Shown here: positions 1,240-45,031 of the stretch, one piece after another
Layout: each line of letters begins with the position of its first letter
Numbering within the stretch: the stretch's first letter is position 1
Virus record (IMG/VR): IMGVR_UViG_3300036805_000175
Location: 12,654-76,653 of that record
From: a virus
Lineage: Duplodnaviria; Caudoviricetes
Strand: one strand, 5' to 3'
Length of the DNA: 64,000 bases
The notes under the pieces: generated by a model
The model's database searches: none
The model's input: only the letters and a program-made list of their open reading frames with translations
Told to the model about the DNA's origin: nothing
Position numbers and translations under genes: made by a program

Positions 1240-1801
1240 CGGCACGGCACACCTCACGCTCAGTGCCACCGGCGCAGCGGTTACAGCCAGGCATCCCCAG
1301 CAGGGTAACGCAGTGCTATCACCGCAGGTCAGATGGCCAAGCGTGAGCGGTGATGTAGCGTAGGCAGCGCGCAGAGCATCGGATGGTAATCACTCACCGT
1401 CACATACCAGGGCGACCATCGCACCGGCTACCCACCGTAACCGACGAGGATGGTGCACTGTAGCGCTCTGACCTGCACGAACATAGCGCAGACCGTTAGC
1501 GGCGCTAAGCAATAATGCGGCATTTTTTTCCAGGGGCAGCACGAGTGCCCGCAGTTTTTTGGAGCGTTTCTCTCCCCGATGGCGAGCGTCCGGCCAGCGG
1601 TCACACACCGCTACGGCCACGTTTCCGCAGGTCAGAGCCCTGTATCCGGCCCTTCCGCACCCTCCCGCTAGCTACGCTGTGTAACGCCCGGGGATTGGTC
1701 ACCATCCGTGACCCCACGCCGTGGGTAACGGTGGGTGACATCCGGCCAGCCGGAGATAGTCACCGGGTGTCACTGCGGGCCGGAATCTCCTGACTGGGGG
1801 C
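1240..1801. promoter_or_regulatory. Non-coding packaging/cos and late-promoter region (putative)
   Basis: Lower-GC gap between HNH and terS; T-tracts at 1523-1529 and 1555-1560; repeated GCAGGTCAGA and GTNAC motifs. Confidence 0.5.
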
Positions 1802-2314
1802 ATGATGCCAGCGTCCGCGCGCACGCAGAAGCAGATCGCGGCCCGGCGGGCCCGTGTCGTGGCCCTGCGCGCCACCGGCATGAGCTGGGATGACATCGCC
1901 GCCGGGGTGGGGGTGCTCAATGCGGCAGTCGCACGCCGGGACGCCCAGGAGCACGCGGCTGCTGACGCCAGGACTGCGGCGGGCCCGCAGGCGGACCTGG
2001 CGGTTGAGCTTGAGCGGCTGGACATCGCCGAGCGTGCCGTCCAGCAGGTGCGGGAGGCCGCGTCGGCGCTGGCCTCGGCCAGCCCGGACGATGATGACGA
2101 GACCGGCGCGGCCGATGACGCGGACGCGATGGCGCTGACGCTGGTGCTGGGCGCGGTGGACCGGCTGATGCGGATCCACGACCGGCGGGCCCGCCTGCTG
2201 GCGCTCACCCCGGCGAAAGGTGCCCAGCCGGCGGGTGCGGGCAAGCCGAGCGCCATCGACGAGGTGGCCGCAGCGCGCAAGCGGCGGCGCACCCGGTACT
2301 CCGCGGCGCAATGA
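1802..2314 (+). CDS. terS: Terminase small subunit (HTH)
   Basis: N-terminal HTH (LRATGMSWDDIAAGVG); C-terminal SAIDEVAAARKRRR; ATGA overlap with terL. Confidence 0.75.
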   Translation: MMPASARTQKQIAARRARVVALRATGMSWDDIAAGVGVLNAAVARRDAQEHAAADARTAAGPQADLAVELERLDIAERAVQQVREAASALASASPDDDDETGAADDADAMALTLVLGAVDRLMRIHDRRARLLALTPAKGAQPAGAGKPSAIDEVAAARKRRRTRYSAAQ

Positions 2315-4002
2315 CGGTCACCACCCCGGCCCGGTCGCTGGTCACTGGGGAGCAGCGGCCCCGGCTGTTCTCCTGCCCGGCCTACGCCACGTCGGCGGGC
2401 GCGGACGTGATCGAGTTGGCCGGCAAGGCGGGCCTGTTCCTGGACGACTGGCAGCGGTGGTTCCTCACCCAGGCGCAGGGCGAGCGGGACCCGGACGGCA
2501 AGTGGGCCGCGTTCGCGGTGGCGCTGATCTGCTCGCGGCAGAACGGCAAGGACGTGATCCTGGAGGCGCGGCAGCTCGCCGGGCTGTTCGCGTTCGGTGA
2601 GACGCTGATCATCCACACCGCGCATGAGTTCCGCACCGCACAGGAGGCGTTCCTGCGGATCCTGCAGCTGATCGAGGGCTACCCGGACCTTGACCAGGAG
2701 GTCGCGAAGGCCCCGGCCAGCCACGGCGAAGAGGGCATCATCCTCAAGCCGACCCCGACGGTCATCACGGGCGCGGGCGGGCACCAGATCACCCGGTCGC
2801 GGACGGCGCGGCTGCGGTTCCTGGCCCGGCACAAGGGCGCCGGCCGCGGGTTCACCGGGGACCTGGTGATCTACAACGAGGCGATGTACCTGGACTCCGG
2901 CCCGGTGGCGGCGTCGCTGCCGACGATGGCGACGCGGATGAGCCAGACCGACGGCGGCCCGCAGGTGTGGTACACGGGCAGTGCCGGGGTGGGCGCGGCG
3001 AGCCAGCAGCTGGCGCGGGTGCGGGAACGCGGCATCGCCGGCGGCACGTCGCTGTGTTTCGCCGAGTGGTCCATCGAGCTGTGCGACGAGGCGTGCCCGC
3101 CGCGCTGCGGCGCGCACGACGACCCGGGCACCGAGCAGGCCGCGGCGAAGGCGAATCCCGGCTACAACCTGCCCGGCCGGTACGACCCGGAGATGGTCCA
3201 GCGGTTCCGTGACGAGATGGACGAGCCCACGTTCCTGCGGGAGATCCTGGGCGTGGGCACCTACCCGGTGCCCGCCGAGGGCTGGGCGGTCATCCCAAAG
3301 ACCTGGTGGGCTTCCACGATGGCGGGTGATGACCAGCGGGCCGCCCGGCCGGTGTTCGCGATCGACACCACGCCGGACCGGGCGTACACGTCGGTGGCGG
3401 CGTGCGGCACGCCCGGCGGCACGGATAAGCCGCGGATCGAGCTGTGTGACCACCGGGCCGGGCAGCGGTGGGCCGCCGCCTATGCCGCCAGCCTGGACGA
3501 GCGGCGCGGCCCCGGCGTGTGGATCGTGGACAAGGGTGCCGCCGCGGGGACGCTGATCGGCGCGCTGGAGGACGCCGGGCTGCGGGTGGAGTGCCCGACG
3601 GCGACCGATGTGGCGCACGCCTGCGGGCGGCTGTATGACGCGCTGCGCGACCGCGAGATCGACCACGCCTGCGACCGGGAGGTGCAGACCGGGCTGGCCG
3701 GGCTGGCGCAGCGGCGGCTCGGCGCCGGGTTCGCCTGGGACCAGCGCGCCGCCGTGGTGGACATCTCCGGCGTGTACGCGTACACGTTCGCGTTCTGGGG
3801 CTGGGAGAAGTTCGGCGGCCAGCCCGCGGACTATGACACCGGCGAGTCGGTCGGGTTCGGCCCGGCGCAGATCATCAGCCTGTTCACCTCCGGCACCTAC
3901 GGGGCCGAGCAGATGCGGCGGATGCGCGGCCGCGGCCTGATCACCGACGACATGCTGGCCGGGCTCGCCGCCGCGGGCGTGCACGTGCCGGCGGGCATCT
4001 GA
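2311..4002 (+). CDS. terL: Terminase large subunit
   Basis: Walker A SRQNGK; HTAHEF; GRGFTGDLVIYNEA; nuclease-domain AIDTTPDR and VVDIS. Confidence 0.95.
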   Translation: MTVTTPARSLVTGEQRPRLFSCPAYATSAGADVIELAGKAGLFLDDWQRWFLTQAQGERDPDGKWAAFAVALICSRQNGKDVILEARQLAGLFAFGETLIIHTAHEFRTAQEAFLRILQLIEGYPDLDQEVAKAPASHGEEGIILKPTPTVITGAGGHQITRSRTARLRFLARHKGAGRGFTGDLVIYNEAMYLDSGPVAASLPTMATRMSQTDGGPQVWYTGSAGVGAASQQLARVRERGIAGGTSLCFAEWSIELCDEACPPRCGAHDDPGTEQAAAKANPGYNLPGRYDPEMVQRFRDEMDEPTFLREILGVGTYPVPAEGWAVIPKTWWASTMAGDDQRAARPVFAIDTTPDRAYTSVAACGTPGGTDKPRIELCDHRAGQRWAAAYAASLDERRGPGVWIVDKGAAAGTLIGALEDAGLRVECPTATDVAHACGRLYDALRDREIDHACDREVQTGLAGLAQRRLGAGFAWDQRAAVVDISGVYAYTFAFWGWEKFGGQPADYDTGESVGFGPAQIISLFTSGTYGAEQMRRMRGRGLITDDMLAGLAAAGVHVPAGI

Positions 4003-4019: not shown

Positions 4020-4331
4020 ATGACGACGACCACGCCCGCGCCGCCGGTCCTCAACGGGGCCGGCCCGCGGCTGTCCCGCCGCCGCAGGGCCGCACGCTGG
4101 GCACGGTGGGCCCGTGACCGCGGCATCCGGGCCGCCAACCGGGTGGCTGCGTGGCGGTGGGCACCCGCACTCCCGGGCGTGGCCGGGGTGGTGCTCACCT
4201 CGATGGCCGCCGGCGGTGTCGTGGGCGAGGCGGTGAACTGGCTGTTCGGCCTGTGGGCCGGGGTGGGCTTGCTGGGCCTGTTCCTGCTGCGCATCGACCA
4301 CCGCCTGCCACCGCCGCGCATGGAGCGGTAG
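4020..4331 (+). CDS. Small two-TM membrane protein before portal
   Basis: Two hydrophobic segments; usual position between terL and portal in HK97-like phages. Confidence 0.7.
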   Translation: MTTTTPAPPVLNGAGPRLSRRRRAARWARWARDRGIRAANRVAAWRWAPALPGVAGVVLTSMAAGGVVGEAVNWLFGLWAGVGLLGLFLLRIDHRLPPPRMER

Positions 4332-5645
4332 ATGGGCCTGGTCTCCGGGGCCGCCGCAGCGCCGGGCACCGCCCTGATGGTCCCCGGGACGGGGGTCACG
4401 CAGGCGCAGGCCCGCGAACTGTGGGGCATCTCCAACCCGATGGACCTGGTGCCGCGGCGGCAGGCCGCGGGCGCCCCGCTGCCGGTGGTGAACGAGGACA
4501 CGGCGCTGCGCAACAGCGCGGTGTGGGCGTGCCTGCGGATGCGCGCCGACCTGATCTCCACCTTCCCGGTCAACGTCTTCCGGATGGTGCGCCAGGGCGA
4601 CGGGTCCAGCGTGCCCGTGTCGGTCCCCACGCCGCGGGTGCTGGCCAGCCCTGACGGCCCGGGGTCGCTGTGGCCGCAGTGGTGCTTCGCGTCGCAGTGG
4701 GACCTGGACCGGACCGGCAACAGCATCGGCCTGATCACCGAGCGCGACGGCAACGGGCTGCCCACGGTGATCGAGCTGCAGTCCGCCACGTCGGTGTCGG
4801 TGCTGATGAACTACCGCAAGAAGATCGTGGGCTACCGGATCGCCGGGAACATCTACGACCCGGCCGACGTGTGGCACGAGAAGCAGTTCGTGGTCGGCGG
4901 CTTCCCGCTCGGCCTGTCCCCGGTCGCCTACGCCGCCTGGCAGGCGCTGTCCCGGGCGATGACCATCGACCAGTTCGCCATCGGCTGGTTCGCCGGCGGC
5001 GGCGTGCCGCGGGCGCGGCTGCGCAACCTGAACAAGCCCATCCCCGGCGCCGAGGCCGACGTCGTGAAGGAAGCCTGGCTGGCGAGCATCGCCACCGGGG
5101 AGCCGTTCGTGCACGGCACCGACTGGGAGTACGACCTGCTGCAGGCCAACGAGGCCGGCTCGTCGTGGCTGGACGCGCAGAAGGCCGGCGTGGTGGACGT
5201 GGCCCGGTACTTCGGCTGCCCGGCCGACCTGATCGACGCGGCCGTCACCGGCGCCGCCCGGATCACCTACGCCAACGTCGCGCAGCGGCACGTGCAGCTG
5301 CTGGTGCTCAACATCGGCCCGGCCGTGGTCCGCCGGGAGGCGGCCCTGTCCACGCTGGTGCAGGCACCGCGGTACGTGAAGCTGAACACCAAGGCGCTGA
5401 TGCGGCTCGACCCGCTGACCCAGGCGCAGATGCTGGACCTGCTGGTGCGCGGCAAGCAGCTCGCCCCGTCGGAGGCGCGCGAGTTCGACGACCGGCCGCC
5501 GTTCACCCAGGCGCAGATCGACGAGCTGGACCACTTCTTCCCGCCCACCGCGCCGCCGCTGGCCCCGGCCCCGGTGGACGGCGTGCCGCAGGCCCCCTAC
5601 AGCGAGCCGGTCACCGGGCCGGGCACCGCGCCGGGCGAACCCTAG
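4332..5645 (+). CDS. Portal protein, HK97 family
   Basis: VWACLRMRADLIS, GLSPVAYA, FAGGGVP, DVARYFGCP, TYANV motifs. Confidence 0.95.
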   Translation: MGLVSGAAAAPGTALMVPGTGVTQAQARELWGISNPMDLVPRRQAAGAPLPVVNEDTALRNSAVWACLRMRADLISTFPVNVFRMVRQGDGSSVPVSVPTPRVLASPDGPGSLWPQWCFASQWDLDRTGNSIGLITERDGNGLPTVIELQSATSVSVLMNYRKKIVGYRIAGNIYDPADVWHEKQFVVGGFPLGLSPVAYAAWQALSRAMTIDQFAIGWFAGGGVPRARLRNLNKPIPGAEADVVKEAWLASIATGEPFVHGTDWEYDLLQANEAGSSWLDAQKAGVVDVARYFGCPADLIDAAVTGAARITYANVAQRHVQLLVLNIGPAVVRREAALSTLVQAPRYVKLNTKALMRLDPLTQAQMLDLLVRGKQLAPSEAREFDDRPPFTQAQIDELDHFFPPTAPPLAPAPVDGVPQAPYSEPVTGPGTAPGEP

Positions 5646-5752: not shown

Positions 5753-7138
5753 ATGCACGGCTCCGACTGCGGCTGCGCCGACCGCGCCAACGGGCACAAC
5801 CCGGACAGCATCGACTACCGGGCGTCCGTGGACAACTCGGCGTGGGACGGCCCGGCGGCCATGTCGGGCTGCTCGAACTCCGGCACCCCGGCGTCGTGCT
5901 TCGGGTCCATCTGCGCCGGCAAGAAGGCTGGCGACACCGCCACCCAGGACGCGTGGGCGCTGCCGCACCACAAGCACCCCGGCGACCCGCCGAACGCCGC
6001 CGGGGTGCAGAACAGCCTGTCCCGGCTGCCGCAGACCCAGGGGCTGACCAACGCCGCCGCGGCCAAGGCGCACCTGCAGGCGCACATGAAGGCCATCAAC
6101 CCGGACTACGCCGGCGACGCCGCGGAACCGCCGCAGGCCGGGCCGCCCGCGCGTGCTGACGCCCGGGCGCGGGCACGGGCGGGCGTCCGGGAGTCGCGGC
6201 GGGACATCATGCCGAAGGTGGCCGCGGCCCGGGCCGCGTGGGCCAACGACGGCCAGCACCACGCCCGCCGGGAGGCACCCAACCCGGGCGGGCGCACCCA
6301 GGGGTTCGGCTCCAAACTGCGCGCCGTCGCGGCGATGAAGGACGGCGGCCAGTTCTACGAGCTCGAGGGCACCGCGTCCGTGGTGGACCAGCCGTACGAG
6401 ATGTATGACATGTTCGGCCCCTACGACGAGGTGATCACCAAGGGCAGCTTCGACGCCTCGCTGGCCACCGACGGCCTGGACGTGGCGTTCCTGCTCAACC
6501 ACAAGGGCGTCACGATGGCCCGCACCACCAACGGCACCCTGTCGCTGTGGGCCAGCCCCGATCTCGCCGTCCGGGCCTACGTCAACGCCGGCCGGGCCGA
6601 CGTCCGGGACATGGTGTCGGCCATCGCCGATGAGCTGATCACCGAGATGAGCTTCGCGTTCTGGCTGCGCGGCGGCGAGTGGTCCGACGACTACATGACG
6701 TTCACCATCGACGAGGCCGACATCAACCGGGGCGACGTGTCCGCGGTCAACTACGGCGCCAACCCGTACACGTCCATCGCCGCCCGCACCGCCGAGCTGC
6801 TCGACGCGGTGGACCGGATGCCCGCCGGGCTGGCCCGGGAGATGACCGAGCGGCTCGCCGCCCGGCCGGACCTCACCGACCCGCGGATCGGCTGGGAACC
6901 CCCACAGGCCCGCGGGGACACGCCGGAGCAGCTGCGCGACGCCCTGCACAGGCACGTCATCGGCTACCGGGTGGGCGGCAAGGTGCACGCCCCCACCGAC
7001 GTGGACCTGGTGACCGACTGGGCCGACGCCGGCGTGCCGGACGACGTGTTCCCGGTGCCCGGAGGCGAGGCGAAGACCGGGCTGAGCGTGCAGATGCTCG
7101 CGCTGCAGCTCGAGTCCGACGACGACCTCGACCACTAG
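5753..7138 (+). CDS. HK97-family prohead protease with long N-terminal extension
   Basis: LEGTASVVDQPY, YDEVITKGSF, FLLNHKG..MART, EMSFAF, DVSAVNYGANPYT. Confidence 0.9.
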   Translation: MHGSDCGCADRANGHNPDSIDYRASVDNSAWDGPAAMSGCSNSGTPASCFGSICAGKKAGDTATQDAWALPHHKHPGDPPNAAGVQNSLSRLPQTQGLTNAAAAKAHLQAHMKAINPDYAGDAAEPPQAGPPARADARARARAGVRESRRDIMPKVAAARAAWANDGQHHARREAPNPGGRTQGFGSKLRAVAAMKDGGQFYELEGTASVVDQPYEMYDMFGPYDEVITKGSFDASLATDGLDVAFLLNHKGVTMARTTNGTLSLWASPDLAVRAYVNAGRADVRDMVSAIADELITEMSFAFWLRGGEWSDDYMTFTIDEADINRGDVSAVNYGANPYTSIAARTAELLDAVDRMPAGLAREMTERLAARPDLTDPRIGWEPPQARGDTPEQLRDALHRHVIGYRVGGKVHAPTDVDLVTDWADAGVPDDVFPVPGGEAKTGLSVQMLALQLESDDDLDH

Positions 7139-7216
7139 CACCCCCCCCCCCGCAAGCCCACCCGCGCCCAGCGGGTGAACCGCCGCGCGATCCGCGTGGC
7201 GTGCAGTGCCGCCGCG

Positions 7217-7295
7217 CCGCCAGTCAGAGCGGCTGCGGCTCGTACCCGCCAGTCAGAGCGGGCAAGTCACCCGCCCGGGCCGCCAGTCAGAGCGG
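7217..7295 (+). repeat. Three 16-bp direct repeats CCGCCAGTCAGAGCGG, each a stem-loop
   Basis: Copies at 7217-7232, 7246-7261 and 7280-7295; CCGC/GCGG stem with CAGTCAGA loop. Confidence 0.9.
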
Positions 7296-7351
7296 CCCCG
7301 GTGCCAGACGGCACGAACCTCACCGTTCACAACGCCCAGGAAGGCACCGCA

Positions 7352-8869
7352 GTGAATCCCACCATCGACAGCCTGCTCGCGCAGGCCGAGGTCGAGAAGG
7401 AAGCCGCCGAGCACCGCCGTCAGCGGGCCCGCGCCGAGATCACCTACATCATCAACGCCGCCAACTCCGAGGGCCGCTCCCAGCTGAGCCCCGAAGAGGA
7501 GCAGAAGGCGTCCGACGCCCGCAAAGCCCGCGACCAGGCCCGCAAGGACATCGCCGGCATCGAGGGCAAGATCGCCAACCTGCGTGATCTGCAGGCCGAG
7601 GAGAGCGAGTACGCCTCGGCGCAGCAGCGCACCCAGGCCGCCGGGCAGCCCATCGCCACCGAGCGTGGCGGCGACCCGGGCCGGGCCGGCGGCGGCGACG
7701 CGCCGCACTCCACCGGCGGCCAGGGCGGCCAGCGGGCGCCCGCCTACGACCAGGTGCACCGGGTCGGCGCCGAGGCGCGCACCTACACCAGGGGCTCGGA
7801 CCCGAACGGGCGGCAGTTCCTGATGGACGTGTGCCGGGCGCACATCCTGTCCGACCCGGCCGCGCAGGCCCGGCTGTCCCGGCACATGGCCGAGGAGCGG
7901 GTCGAGCGGACCGCCGAGCAGATGCAGCGCGCGGCCGGCGACAGCACCACCGGCAACTGGGCCGGGCTGACCGTGCCGCAGTACCTGACCGACATGTACG
8001 CGCCGGTCGCCCGGGCGCTGCGCCCGTTCGCCGACATCTGCAACAAGCACCCGCTGCCCGCCAACGGCATGGCGCTGGACATCTCCCGGATCACCACCGG
8101 CACCGCGGTGACCCAGCAGGTGAACGAGCTCGACAACGCCTTCCAGCAGAGCGCGGACGACACGCTGCTGACCGTCCCCGTGCTCACCGCGGCCGGGCAG
8201 CAGAAGGTGTCCCGGCAGGCCATCGACCGGGGCACCGGCATCGAGGACGTGCTGATGCAGGACCTGTTCGCCGCGTACGCCACGTCGCTGGACAACCAGC
8301 TCATCACCACCGCGAGCACGGGCCTGTCGGCGGTGGCGAACACCGTCACGGCCAACACCACCACCAACCAGGTCCAGTCGGCCTACTCCAAGATCCTCGG
8401 TGCCATGTCCGGGGTGGAGGCGGCCCTGCTCAACATGGGCTACCCGACGCACGCGGTCATGCACTCCCGCCGGTGGTACTGGTTCGCCTCCCAGCAGGTG
8501 AGCACGTTCCCGTTCGTGCAGCAGCCGGGGATGCCGTTCAACGCGACCGGCGCCGCCGAGCCCGCCAGCCACTACAACAGCGGCGTCCGGGGGCACCTGC
8601 CGATCGGGCTCGAGGTCGTGGTGGACAACAACCTCGCCACCAACCTCGGCGCCGGCACCAACCAGGACGAGATCTACGTCGTCCCGGACCGGGAATGCCA
8701 TTTGTGGGAGGATCCCTCGGCCCCTCTTTATATTCGTGCCGATCAGCCGGCGGCCCCGAGCCTCGGAGTTCTTTTGGTCACGTACGGTTACTTTGCCTTT
8801 ACTTTTGCACGCTATTCCGGTGCAATCCAGAAAGTTTCTGGCACGGCATTGTCTGTACCTGTGTTTTAA
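7352..8869 (+). CDS. Major capsid protein (HK97 fold, coiled-coil delta domain)
   Basis: GTG at 7352 after AGGAAGG; coiled-coil N-terminus; AGLTVPQYLTD, QQKVSRQAIDRG, VMHSRRW, VVVDNN. Confidence 0.9.
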   Translation: MNPTIDSLLAQAEVEKEAAEHRRQRARAEITYIINAANSEGRSQLSPEEEQKASDARKARDQARKDIAGIEGKIANLRDLQAEESEYASAQQRTQAAGQPIATERGGDPGRAGGGDAPHSTGGQGGQRAPAYDQVHRVGAEARTYTRGSDPNGRQFLMDVCRAHILSDPAAQARLSRHMAEERVERTAEQMQRAAGDSTTGNWAGLTVPQYLTDMYAPVARALRPFADICNKHPLPANGMALDISRITTGTAVTQQVNELDNAFQQSADDTLLTVPVLTAAGQQKVSRQAIDRGTGIEDVLMQDLFAAYATSLDNQLITTASTGLSAVANTVTANTTTNQVQSAYSKILGAMSGVEAALLNMGYPTHAVMHSRRWYWFASQQVSTFPFVQQPGMPFNATGAAEPASHYNSGVRGHLPIGLEVVVDNNLATNLGAGTNQDEIYVVPDRECHLWEDPSAPLYIRADQPAAPSLGVLLVTYGYFAFTFARYSGAIQKVSGTALSVPVF

Positions 8870-11445: not shown

Positions 11446-11753
11446 CCCAGCCGCAGCCGGCCGGGCCGCCGCTGCTCGACCCGGGCAACCGGTGGATCAC
11501 CCCGGAGCAGTGCGACCTGACCACCGGCCGCATGTACCTGACCGATAACGCGACCGGGCTGCGGACTGAGTACGCGGTGCTGACGTTCCGGGCTGGCAAC
11601 TCCACGATGACCCTGCTCGTCACGAAGGACGAGCTGCGGTCGTGGATCGGCTCCCTGCGGGAGACGCACGGCAAGATGAGCAGCGTCGCCATCGCCACCC
11701 CGGGCGGCCCGCCGGTGCCACTGCCGGACGGGCTGCGCAAGGGCCGTGGCTGA
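11442..11753 (+). CDS. Hypothetical protein
   Basis: GTGA coupling; GC3-rich. Confidence 0.65.
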   Translation: MTQPQPAGPPLLDPGNRWITPEQCDLTTGRMYLTDNATGLRTEYAVLTFRAGNSTMTLLVTKDELRSWIGSLRETHGKMSSVAIATPGGPPVPLPDGLRKGRG

Positions 11754-30687: not shown

Positions 30688-31259
30688 CCACACTCGACGC
30701 AGCCCCCGGTGATGTGCTGGCGGTCAGCGCCGGGCCGTGGTGGTGCCGCAAGGTGATCGAGCTCGGCGAGCGGATGCGCGGCCTCGCCGCACCCGTCAAC
30801 CACGTGATCGTGATCACTCATCAGGACGCACTCGGCAGGTGGATCGGCGTTCAGGGGCAGCCCGGCGGGGTCGGTCCCGTGGACTGCACGCCATACCTGG
30901 CTGCCAAGGTCACGCGCTCCAACCATCTCCAGCCGAAGCCGGCACCGGGCAGCCCGGAGATGACCGCATTCCTGGCGGACTGCGTAAACGCGCTGGGCAT
31001 CCGGTACGACTGGGCGGGGATCGATGACGACCTGCTCGACGCCCTGCACTTGCACGACCTGACCGCACTAGTGGACCGGCTGTGGCGGTGGCCGGCCAAG
31101 CACGGGATGCTGCCGGGCGAGGTCGTCTGCTCGTCGCTGGCGGCTGAGCTTTATGCGCTGGCCGGCTGGCCGCACCCCGATCTCGGGGACGAGCGGCAAT
31201 GCGAGCCATCGTCGTGGTGGCGATGGAACGACGGCGAGCAGTGGCGGCATGCTGCGTGA
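30684..31259 (+). CDS. Permuted NlpC/P60 (YiiX-like) papain-fold enzyme
   Basis: PGDVLAV..NHVIVI..YDW..VVCSSLAAELY, with His before Cys. Confidence 0.7.
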   Translation: MTTLDAAPGDVLAVSAGPWWCRKVIELGERMRGLAAPVNHVIVITHQDALGRWIGVQGQPGGVGPVDCTPYLAAKVTRSNHLQPKPAPGSPEMTAFLADCVNALGIRYDWAGIDDDLLDALHLHDLTALVDRLWRWPAKHGMLPGEVVCSSLAAELYALAGWPHPDLGDERQCEPSSWWRWNDGEQWRHAA

Positions 31260-44347: not shown

Positions 44348-45031
44348 CTAGCCACGGGTGGCCTTCGGGGGATGTATGGGCGTGACGAAGTTGCTCGTGA
44401 CAGACCCACGAGTGCGGGCATAGAAGTCGGCCGCACGCTCAGTGGCGAAGGTGCCGTAGGTCTTACCGTCCGCGCCGAGCTTGACCACGTAGCCGCCGTG
44501 GCGCACTTGCAGGCCGGCCGTCTTGGCGACAGCCCGCAACAGTGCCGCCATCCGGGCCAGGGGCAGCGGCTGGGCTTCCCGCCTAGGCGCCTTCTTCACC
44601 GCAGTGAGCTTCCCGCCGCGCGGCACGAGCAGGCCCCAGCCTTCCGGCAGTTCATCATCACGCACGATGGACTTGTCGGCCGCCGCCAGCCACCAGTAGT
44701 TCGTGAACGGGACGAACTCCTCGGCCTTCCACGGGTCTTTCAGTTCACGCAGCCAGTCAGACCGGCTGACCTTGACCTCTACGCCGTGGATAGCGATATT
44801 GCTGCTCGCCCATGTGTCAACAGCTACGAAGTCGGCAGTGCGGCAGTCGAACCCCGCCTTGGCGCGGACGTGCTCGGCGCGGACATACCGGTCGGCCTGG
44901 ACGGCGCCGTTGTAGGACTGCTGGCCGAACCGCTTGTGGAGCAGGTCCAGCATCCCGCGCTCGGTCAACGTGATCGGCTTGGGCATCCCCTTGGAAGAGG
45001 TCTCGTCTTCGACGTCGAACAGCGGCTCCAT
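44348..45031 (-). CDS. MmcB-like PD-(D/E)xK nuclease
   Basis: ADFVAVD..HGVEVKVSRSDWLRELKDPWK..YWWLAA. Confidence 0.75.
   Translation of the reverse strand: MEPLFDVEDETSSKGMPKPITLTERGMLDLLHKRFGQQSYNGAVQADRYVRAEHVRAKAGFDCRTADFVAVDTWASSNIAIHGVEVKVSRSDWLRELKDPWKAEEFVPFTNYWWLAAADKSIVRDDELPEGWGLLVPRGGKLTAVKKAPRREAQPLPLARMAALLRAVAKTAGLQVRHGGYVVKLGADGKTYGTFATERAADFYARTRGSVTSNFVTPIHPPKATRG

Follow-up and report, generated by a model that had tools for sequence, protein, structure and literature searches.

A conserved array of same-loop RNA hairpins in the capsid gene leader of a tailed phage and its relatives in actinobacteria

In the nut sites of phages lambda and P22, boxB RNA presents a fixed loop on a short G+C stem whose sequence is free, and the loop is read by the small phage N protein. 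Other phage proteins read hairpins in mRNA leaders to set translation, as is known for MS2 and PP7 (coat-replicase), T4 gp43, and T4 gp32. In the leaders and sponge RNAs recognized by CsrA/RsmA, several hairpins with the same loop word dock one protein. The P22 scaffolding protein is a head-assembly protein whose synthesis is tied to assembly at the post-transcriptional level, and we know of no defined hairpin operator for this autoregulation. Phages need hundreds of capsid subunits for every dozen portal subunits, all from one late operon. To our knowledge, control of this ratio is poorly understood beyond a few model phages.

The locus described here carries three hairpins with one shared loop in the leader of a major capsid gene. 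Its likeness to boxB lies in the display of a fixed loop on a free stem. However, boxB has a 5-nt GNRA-like loop and occurs once per early operon, beside boxA and near the promoter, whereas the present loops are 8 nt long and occur as tandem copies inside a late structural operon. An earlier note on this DNA had named boxB as an analogue, and the comparison fails on the very features that define that element, which are the pentaloop, the promoter-proximal site, and the early operon. The T4 gp43 operator (5-pair stem, 8-nt loop) agrees with the array in loop size, and the T4 gp32 leader pseudoknot is an example of nucleation well upstream of the ribosome-binding site (RBS). The MS2 and gp43 operators each occur once and either overlap the RBS or adjoin it, whereas the three copies considered here end 40 nt before it. 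At that distance, simple occlusion of the kind implied by the MS2-type operator analogy, which had also been proposed, is a poor fit. The array has no sequence similarity to the MS2, PP7, gp43, or gp32 operators, and the GGA loop motif that defines CsrA/RsmA sites is absent from it. The resemblance to P22 is that the capsid protein has its own scaffold-like N-terminal domain, and RNA binding by this capsid is hypothetical.

The array between the protease and capsid genes

The window, meaning the whole stretch of DNA analyzed here (64,000 nt), is part of a 76.6-kb IMG/VR virus record. Its head module includes the genes for the large terminase (2311-4002), the portal (4332-5645), the prohead (head maturation) protease (5753-7138, plus strand), and the 505-aa major capsid protein (7352-8869, plus strand). 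The protease matches Pfam PF04586 Peptidase_S78 (1.1e-12) and phrog_80 (1.5e-22), and the capsid protein matches phrog_2263, a major-head-protein family (1.5e-47), in agreement with the neighbors given in the earlier note. The protease gene ends with a TAG codon (7136-7138), and the 213-nt gap that follows it (7139-7351, plus strand) is a structured non-coding leader. On the same strand, an RBS (AGGAAGG, 7338-7344) precedes the capsid GTG start codon (7352-7354), which was placed by N-terminal alignment: the protein read from GTG 7352 matches the starts of about 100 homologs residue for residue. The capsid protein has an N-terminal coiled-coil, delta-like domain. The capsid gene is presumably the gene under the leader's control. 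Upstream of the array are low-copy genes (portal, protease), and downstream of it is the virion gene with the highest copy number.

Three exact copies of the 16-mer CCGCCAGTCAGAGCGG are present on the plus strand, at 7217-7232, 7246-7261, and 7280-7295, with gaps of 13 and 18 nt (29 and 34 nt from start to start). Shuffling of the window gives an expectation of 0.22 matches at two or fewer mismatches to this 16-mer, and four matches were reached in none of 100 shuffles. Each copy lies in a plus-strand hairpin with the 8-nt loop CAGUCAGA and a stem extension of its own. Hairpin 1 (7211-7239; loop at 7221-7228) has 10 pairs and one bulged U, hairpin 2 (7245-7262; loop at 7250-7257) has 5 pairs, and hairpin 3 (7272-7303; loop at 7284-7291) has 7 pairs (7277-7298) and an outer set of 4 pairs. 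The minimum free energy (MFE) of the 222-nt stretch from 7139 to 7360 is -105.6 kcal/mol (z = -4.8), and this stretch is more stable than all 200 shuffled versions. Given the triple repeat, its rarity in shuffles, the hairpin folds, and the leader z-score, the observation is therefore correct, and the earlier description of three same-loop hairpins with differing paired flanks is borne out by exact repeats and folding. The array had also been placed about 55 nt upstream of the RBS, a distance that fits the start codon instead: from the end of the third stem (7298) it is 54 nt to the GTG and only 40 nt to the RBS.

Other features of the leader can be noted in passing. Two more G+C-rich hairpins with unrelated loops (7159-7177 and 7181-7201, plus strand) appear in both MFE and centroid folds, and they occupy the place of a terminator in distant relatives. 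Two bases past the protease stop codon is a run of 11 C residues (7141-7151), a slippage-prone homopolymer that is C-rich like a Rho loading site. Within 7261-7277, the 3′ arm of hairpin 2 has an alternative partner in a downstream CCCGC. Pairing of the two would enclose the loop CAAGUCA and yield a degenerate fourth copy, which overlaps hairpin 2. Right after hairpin 3, the segment CGGUGCC (7299-7305) can pair with a local GGCAC to form a small AGAC-loop hairpin (7301-7314). Alternatively, and in MFE folds only, it can pair with GGCACCG (7343-7349), which takes in the end of the RBS together with spacer sequence; this predicted pairing may constitute an anti-RBS switch tied to hairpin 3.

Several other identities for the array were considered and rejected. 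The capsid reading frame is open from 7175, but homologs start at GTG 7352, which argues against a coding N-terminal extension, and the spacing of the 16-mer copies puts them in different frames, so that no repeated peptide is encoded. A read-through fusion of protease and capsid was discarded because the two genes share a frame in 32 of 92 distinct leaders, the one third expected by chance, and that frame is open in 11. In the window, the two genes happen to be in one frame, separated by the TAG codon and an open 71-codon linker. The array is also not an intrinsic terminator, since no terminator-like site was found between 6900 and 7500 and no copy is followed by a U-tract. Nor is it a mobile repeat of the REP or MITE type, as the 76.6-kb record holds no other convincing copy. 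A search of the leader for a sigma-70-like promoter found none, and the window contains no tRNA gene, which was sought as a possible loop partner. Pfam and PHROG searches for RNA-binding domains gave no useful match in the N- and C-terminal parts of the protease, the capsid N-terminal domain, or the ORF at 4020-4328.

Conservation and covariation in relatives

Capsid-based searches identified 72 loci in actinobacterial genomes and 80 IMG/VR loci with capsid identities of 41-66%, and the hosts of these relatives include Streptomyces, Kitasatospora, Micromonospora, Frankia, Amycolatopsis, Actinomadura, and Streptosporangium. We counted as relatives the 115 loci with a homologous capsid whose N-terminus aligns. 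The capsid leaders of 76 of these 115 carry one to four sense-strand hairpins in the 40-250 nt before the capsid start, with loop centers 40-140 nt upstream of the start codon. Their stems are mostly CCGG/CCGG with variable extensions, and their loops are 7-9 nt long with CAG(A) as the first bases. Examples include CAGAUCGC, CAGAUGAC, CAGACGC, and the loop of the window itself, CAGUCAGA, as well as CAAUCAGA, CAGAUCAGA, CAGACCGAA, and CAGAGCAGA. Culturable lysogens with a member of the family include Streptomyces sp. CB03234 (L012), S. cellulosae NRRL B-2687 (L005), S. echinoruber JCM 5016 (L010), Actinomadura cremea JCM 3308 (L011), and Micromonospora sp. CA-249363 (L017). An actinophage capsid-leader array with a CAGUCACA loop looks like a member of the same family.

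Neighboring copies in relatives are mostly 33-37 nt apart, which can be compared with the distances of 29 and 34 nt in the window. Loop variants are identical within one phage in 16 of 33 multi-copy leaders, and this homogenization suggests a sequence-specific reader; taken with the spacing, it fits one that is possibly multimeric. The start of the array often coincides with the protease stop codon or is only a few bases away from it. In some loci, a hairpin copy even lies within the protease frame, about 100 nt before the protease stop (L125 2001-2024, L111 1102-1126, L106 2743-2767, and L116 2742-2766). Because these copies carry the loop variant of their own phage, selection appears to act on the RNA and not on spacer DNA.

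The family was defined by building a covariance model (R1) from 73 distinct hairpins. Its members are one to four tandem, sense-strand copies in the gap that separates the prohead protease gene from the major capsid gene, with stems of 4-12 pairs that are free and covarying in sequence and loops of 7-9 nt that begin with CAG. The window array, with its three copies, shares each of these features. Hairpins 1, 2, and 3 (23.5, 19.0, and 24.6 bits, respectively) are the best three plus-strand matches to R1 in the 64 kb. Two antisense matches of 19.1-19.4 bits (minus strand, 11708-11731 and 31114-31137) look like chance. In about 1 Mb of related loci, the model gave 119 matches at E<=1, and 111 of them are on the sense strand just before a capsid start. 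No convincing comparable second site was found in five long phage contigs, the window included. A fourth CAGTCAGA in the window (44750-44768) could form a 5-pair hairpin in a shifted register, scores poorly with the model, and is probably due to chance.

Evidence for pairing comes in part from a loop-first test, which is anchored on the loop word alone and hence is not circular. Of the two commonest loop words, CAGTCAGA is flanked by at least 4 pairs at 21 of 27 occurrences in the capsid leaders of relatives versus 1 of 11 elsewhere in the loci, and for CAGATCGC the corresponding counts are 32 of 37 versus 1 of 81. Among the 73 distinct hairpins, 80% of the cells pair (58% in shuffles) and the covariation score is 0.536 (0.161 in shuffles), values that were each reached by none of 500 shuffles. 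Sliding the 3′ partner by one column causes pairing to drop to 49-52%. Double changes are present at all eight pairs, including flips of the closing pair from G-C, which is usual in the family, to C-G, which is found in 10 of the 73 hairpins and in those of the window. Pairs 5 and 6 outward from the loop (columns 4-21 and 3-22), which were not used in selection, have 23 double changes each.

By comparison, loop positions 1 and 2 (C and A) are invariant, and position 3 is G in at least 90% of the 73 distinct hairpins. This pattern shows that the stems serve only to present the loop: a stem is free in sequence as long as it pairs, whereas the loop, with its 5′ CAG, and the strand are fixed. Inside the helices there are 4 G-U pairs and no A-C pairs, which fits sense-strand RNA, and all copies are oriented the same way as the genes. 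The type of pairing and the strand thus lend indirect support to the view that the hairpins are RNA elements. The earlier note envisaged a structured RNA whose loop is fixed and whose paired flanks vary, and relatives keep this element with covarying stems.

The distribution of the element among relatives is a mosaic. The two loci with the closest capsids found (L073 and L074, 65-66% identity) have no canonical copies, which implies that the element is easily gained, lost, or replaced. A locus with only 52% capsid identity (L121) has a hairpin with the exact 16-mer of the window. Exact scans of IMG/VR and metagenomes with this 16-mer recovered capsid leaders only from the L121 contig and from L333, and all others are chance matches within coding DNA from unrelated organisms. 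Of 55 IMG/VR matches to the CCGG-stemmed CAGTCAGA unit, 34 are directly upstream of a capsid homolog, and one more, on an incomplete sequence (L201), comes after a protease homolog. The word CCGGCAGATCGCCCGG is found in capsid leaders at 15 of its 84 occurrences. None of the other 69 is followed by a capsid gene, and coding periodicity is seen at most of them, apparently from an RQIAR helix-turn-helix peptide.

The proposal that the RNA is undescribed is upheld by Rfam 15, in which nothing overlaps the array at E<=10 (window positions 6500-8000) and no match at E<=1 was found for eight related loci. The finding has thus survived both of the checks put forward in the earlier note as capable of overturning it, namely conservation and covariation in relatives and coverage by an existing Rfam family. 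Literature searches by text, with the hairpin 16-mers of four relatives, and with related phrases found no paper describing the hairpins. The candidates described from a catalogue of more than 10,000 viral candidate RNAs include five upstream of a T7-type capsid family (PMC10690425). We conclude that the conserved cis-regulatory RNA hairpin array in the capsid leader is real and, as judged from Rfam, uncatalogued, and that it represents a new family of an already known type of element.

GenBank phage records hold no near relative of the window phage, and the best capsid match is to cluster J mycobacteriophages at about 30% identity. In two distant relatives that are cultured or annotated mycobacteriophages, Courthouse of cluster J (L328 1300-1365) and prophiT37-1 (L329 1325-1365), a canonical U-tract terminator is present in the protease-capsid gap, which indicates that transcripts of the lineage have a boundary there. 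After the terminator come two hairpins with a common loop (CUGGCACU; CGCUA, CGCUC) on different stems. These arrays have the same architecture and place as the window array, with unrelated loops and in another capsid lineage, and we consider them analogous to it. The layout therefore recurs. The cluster J paper makes no mention of capsid-leader hairpins (PMC3706429).

Possible roles of the hairpin loops

We tentatively favor a reading, to which we give somewhat less than an even chance, in which the loops dock a trans-acting factor that controls the translation or stability of capsid mRNA. The three hairpins in the transcribed capsid leader would be docking sites for this reader, which would most likely be a protein. 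The scaffold-like domain at the capsid's own N-terminus is one candidate, and others are a late protein of the phage and a host RNA-binding protein or RNase. When bound to the tandem sites, the reader would set the yield of capsid protein from late mRNA. It might do so by altering translation initiation, or by changing how stable the capsid mRNA is, or how it is processed, compared with the low-copy portal and protease messages upstream. Direct steric repression of the RBS is unlikely because of the 40 nt that separate it from the hairpins. Autoregulation by the capsid or its delta domain, or antitermination, both raised in the earlier note, are guesses as to mechanism.

Conservation of the loop could also derive from contact with an RNase or RNA polymerase instead of a dedicated regulator. 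In this case, the array might punctuate message processing or stability at the low-copy/high-copy boundary, as a site at which host RNases (RNase E, J, or III) cleave or are blocked, or else as an attenuator of the U-less type. The outcome would be a stable capsid mRNA headed by protective hairpins. We regard this account as possible but on balance unlikely. The array is exactly at the protease-capsid boundary, often at the protease stop in relatives and with one copy inside the protease 3′ end, and these locations are what punctuation would predict, as is an RBS that is too distant from the hairpins for occlusion. Courthouse and prophiT37-1 furthermore have a hairpin and U-tract in the same gap, but no copy in the window array is followed by such a tract. 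Moreover, generic barriers and terminators need no fixed loop, yet the first two loop bases are invariant, the third is nearly so (G in at least 90%), and the loops are often homogenized per phage (16 of 33 multi-copy leaders).

A third account needs no reader. In a purely cis-acting RNA switch, a long-range pseudoknot between a loop and the segment before the Shine-Dalgarno sequence would tune ribosome access, and the extra hairpins would be alternative partners. Of 63 distinct leaders, 24 have a complement of at least 6 nt to the loop immediately before the RBS. Shuffles give 1.2 such leaders on average and never more than 6, and same-sense and reversed controls give 0-2. When independent clusters are counted, such a complement is present in 4 of 34 (about 0.65 expected), and most of the signal comes from one related cluster. 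In L001-L012 and L076-L103, a segment about 20-10 nt before the capsid RBS is the reverse complement of the 5′ arm and loop, and it changes together with the loop class. Loops with CAGATCGC pair up with CGATCT(G/A) before the RBS and CAGATG.C loops with CATCTG; in RNA letters, CAGAUCGC loops go with CGAUCU(G/A) and CAGAUG.C loops with CAUCUG. There is one compensatory pair between the two loop classes (GC in 12, CG in 10). For one large group of related leaders, loop pairing of this kind suggests that control is exerted at translation initiation.

The matching of loop classes by their own pre-RBS complements is what such a switch would require, yet the single covarying position separates two related clades. 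In the window, no loop complement is present in 7101-7500, even with G-U allowed, except for a 5-nt match at 7228-7235 in the 3′ arm of hairpin 1, and no exact complement exists anywhere on the plus strand. A complement is also absent from about two thirds of independent lineages, and most lineages with CAGTCAGA, CAATCAGA, CAGACCGAA, or CAGAGCAGA loops lack one before the RBS. Because it is missing in the window and in so many lineages, pairing between loop and RBS region is not a general mechanism. We therefore consider a purely cis-acting switch to be very doubtful, and for the window it is close to excluded.

The cos region of the window bears on a fourth account. The repeat GCAGGTCAGA has three exact copies, at 1324-1333 (plus strand), 1467-1476 (minus strand), and 1627-1636 (plus strand), in a lower-GC non-coding region upstream of the small terminase gene. 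This sequence resembles the hairpin loop with one extra base. Since its copies have no hairpin flanks and occur in both orientations, it looks like a double-stranded DNA site, and the copies are probably terminase or cos-binding sites. The idea in the earlier note that one factor may read both this motif and the hairpin loops gained no support from the analysis. By extension, the leader units might themselves be double-stranded DNA sites for a late regulator or for the factor that reads the cos repeats, given this resemblance, the inverted repeat in every unit (with CCGG half-sites in most relatives), and a pre-RBS element that in relatives is readable as an inverted arm and loop, but this is the least probable of the accounts, since stem extensions that differ between copies of one phage stay complementary, closing-pair flips (10 of 73) and G-U pairs are expected of a folded single strand and not of an operator, the conserved center is asymmetric and in every case on the sense strand, a search for promoter-like sites found none, and the cos repeats lack hairpin flanks.

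Implications for capsid synthesis

Perhaps same-loop arrays in the protease-capsid gap, which the present loci show in actinophages and, with unrelated loops, in cluster J mycobacteriophages, are a general and hitherto unrecognized device of tailed phages. A head-assembly protein, for example the protease tail or the N-terminal domain by which the capsid resembles a scaffold, would then read the loops of its own mRNA. We consider this proposal as a whole to be rather doubtful. If true, capsid synthesis would be coupled to procapsid assembly, in what would amount to an RNA-operator version of P22 scaffold autoregulation.

Returning to the docking of a trans-acting reader as our preferred explanation, the element occurs in dozens of prophages of Streptomyces, Micromonospora, Frankia, Amycolatopsis, and other actinomycetes, and the question of how capsid ratios are set is therefore testable in culturable, inducible lysogens. 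The array offers a conserved and easily recognized RNA located exactly at the boundary between low-copy and high-copy genes, and it is a candidate family for RNA databases. The reader, if found, would provide a compact hairpin-protein pair usable in high-GC hosts.
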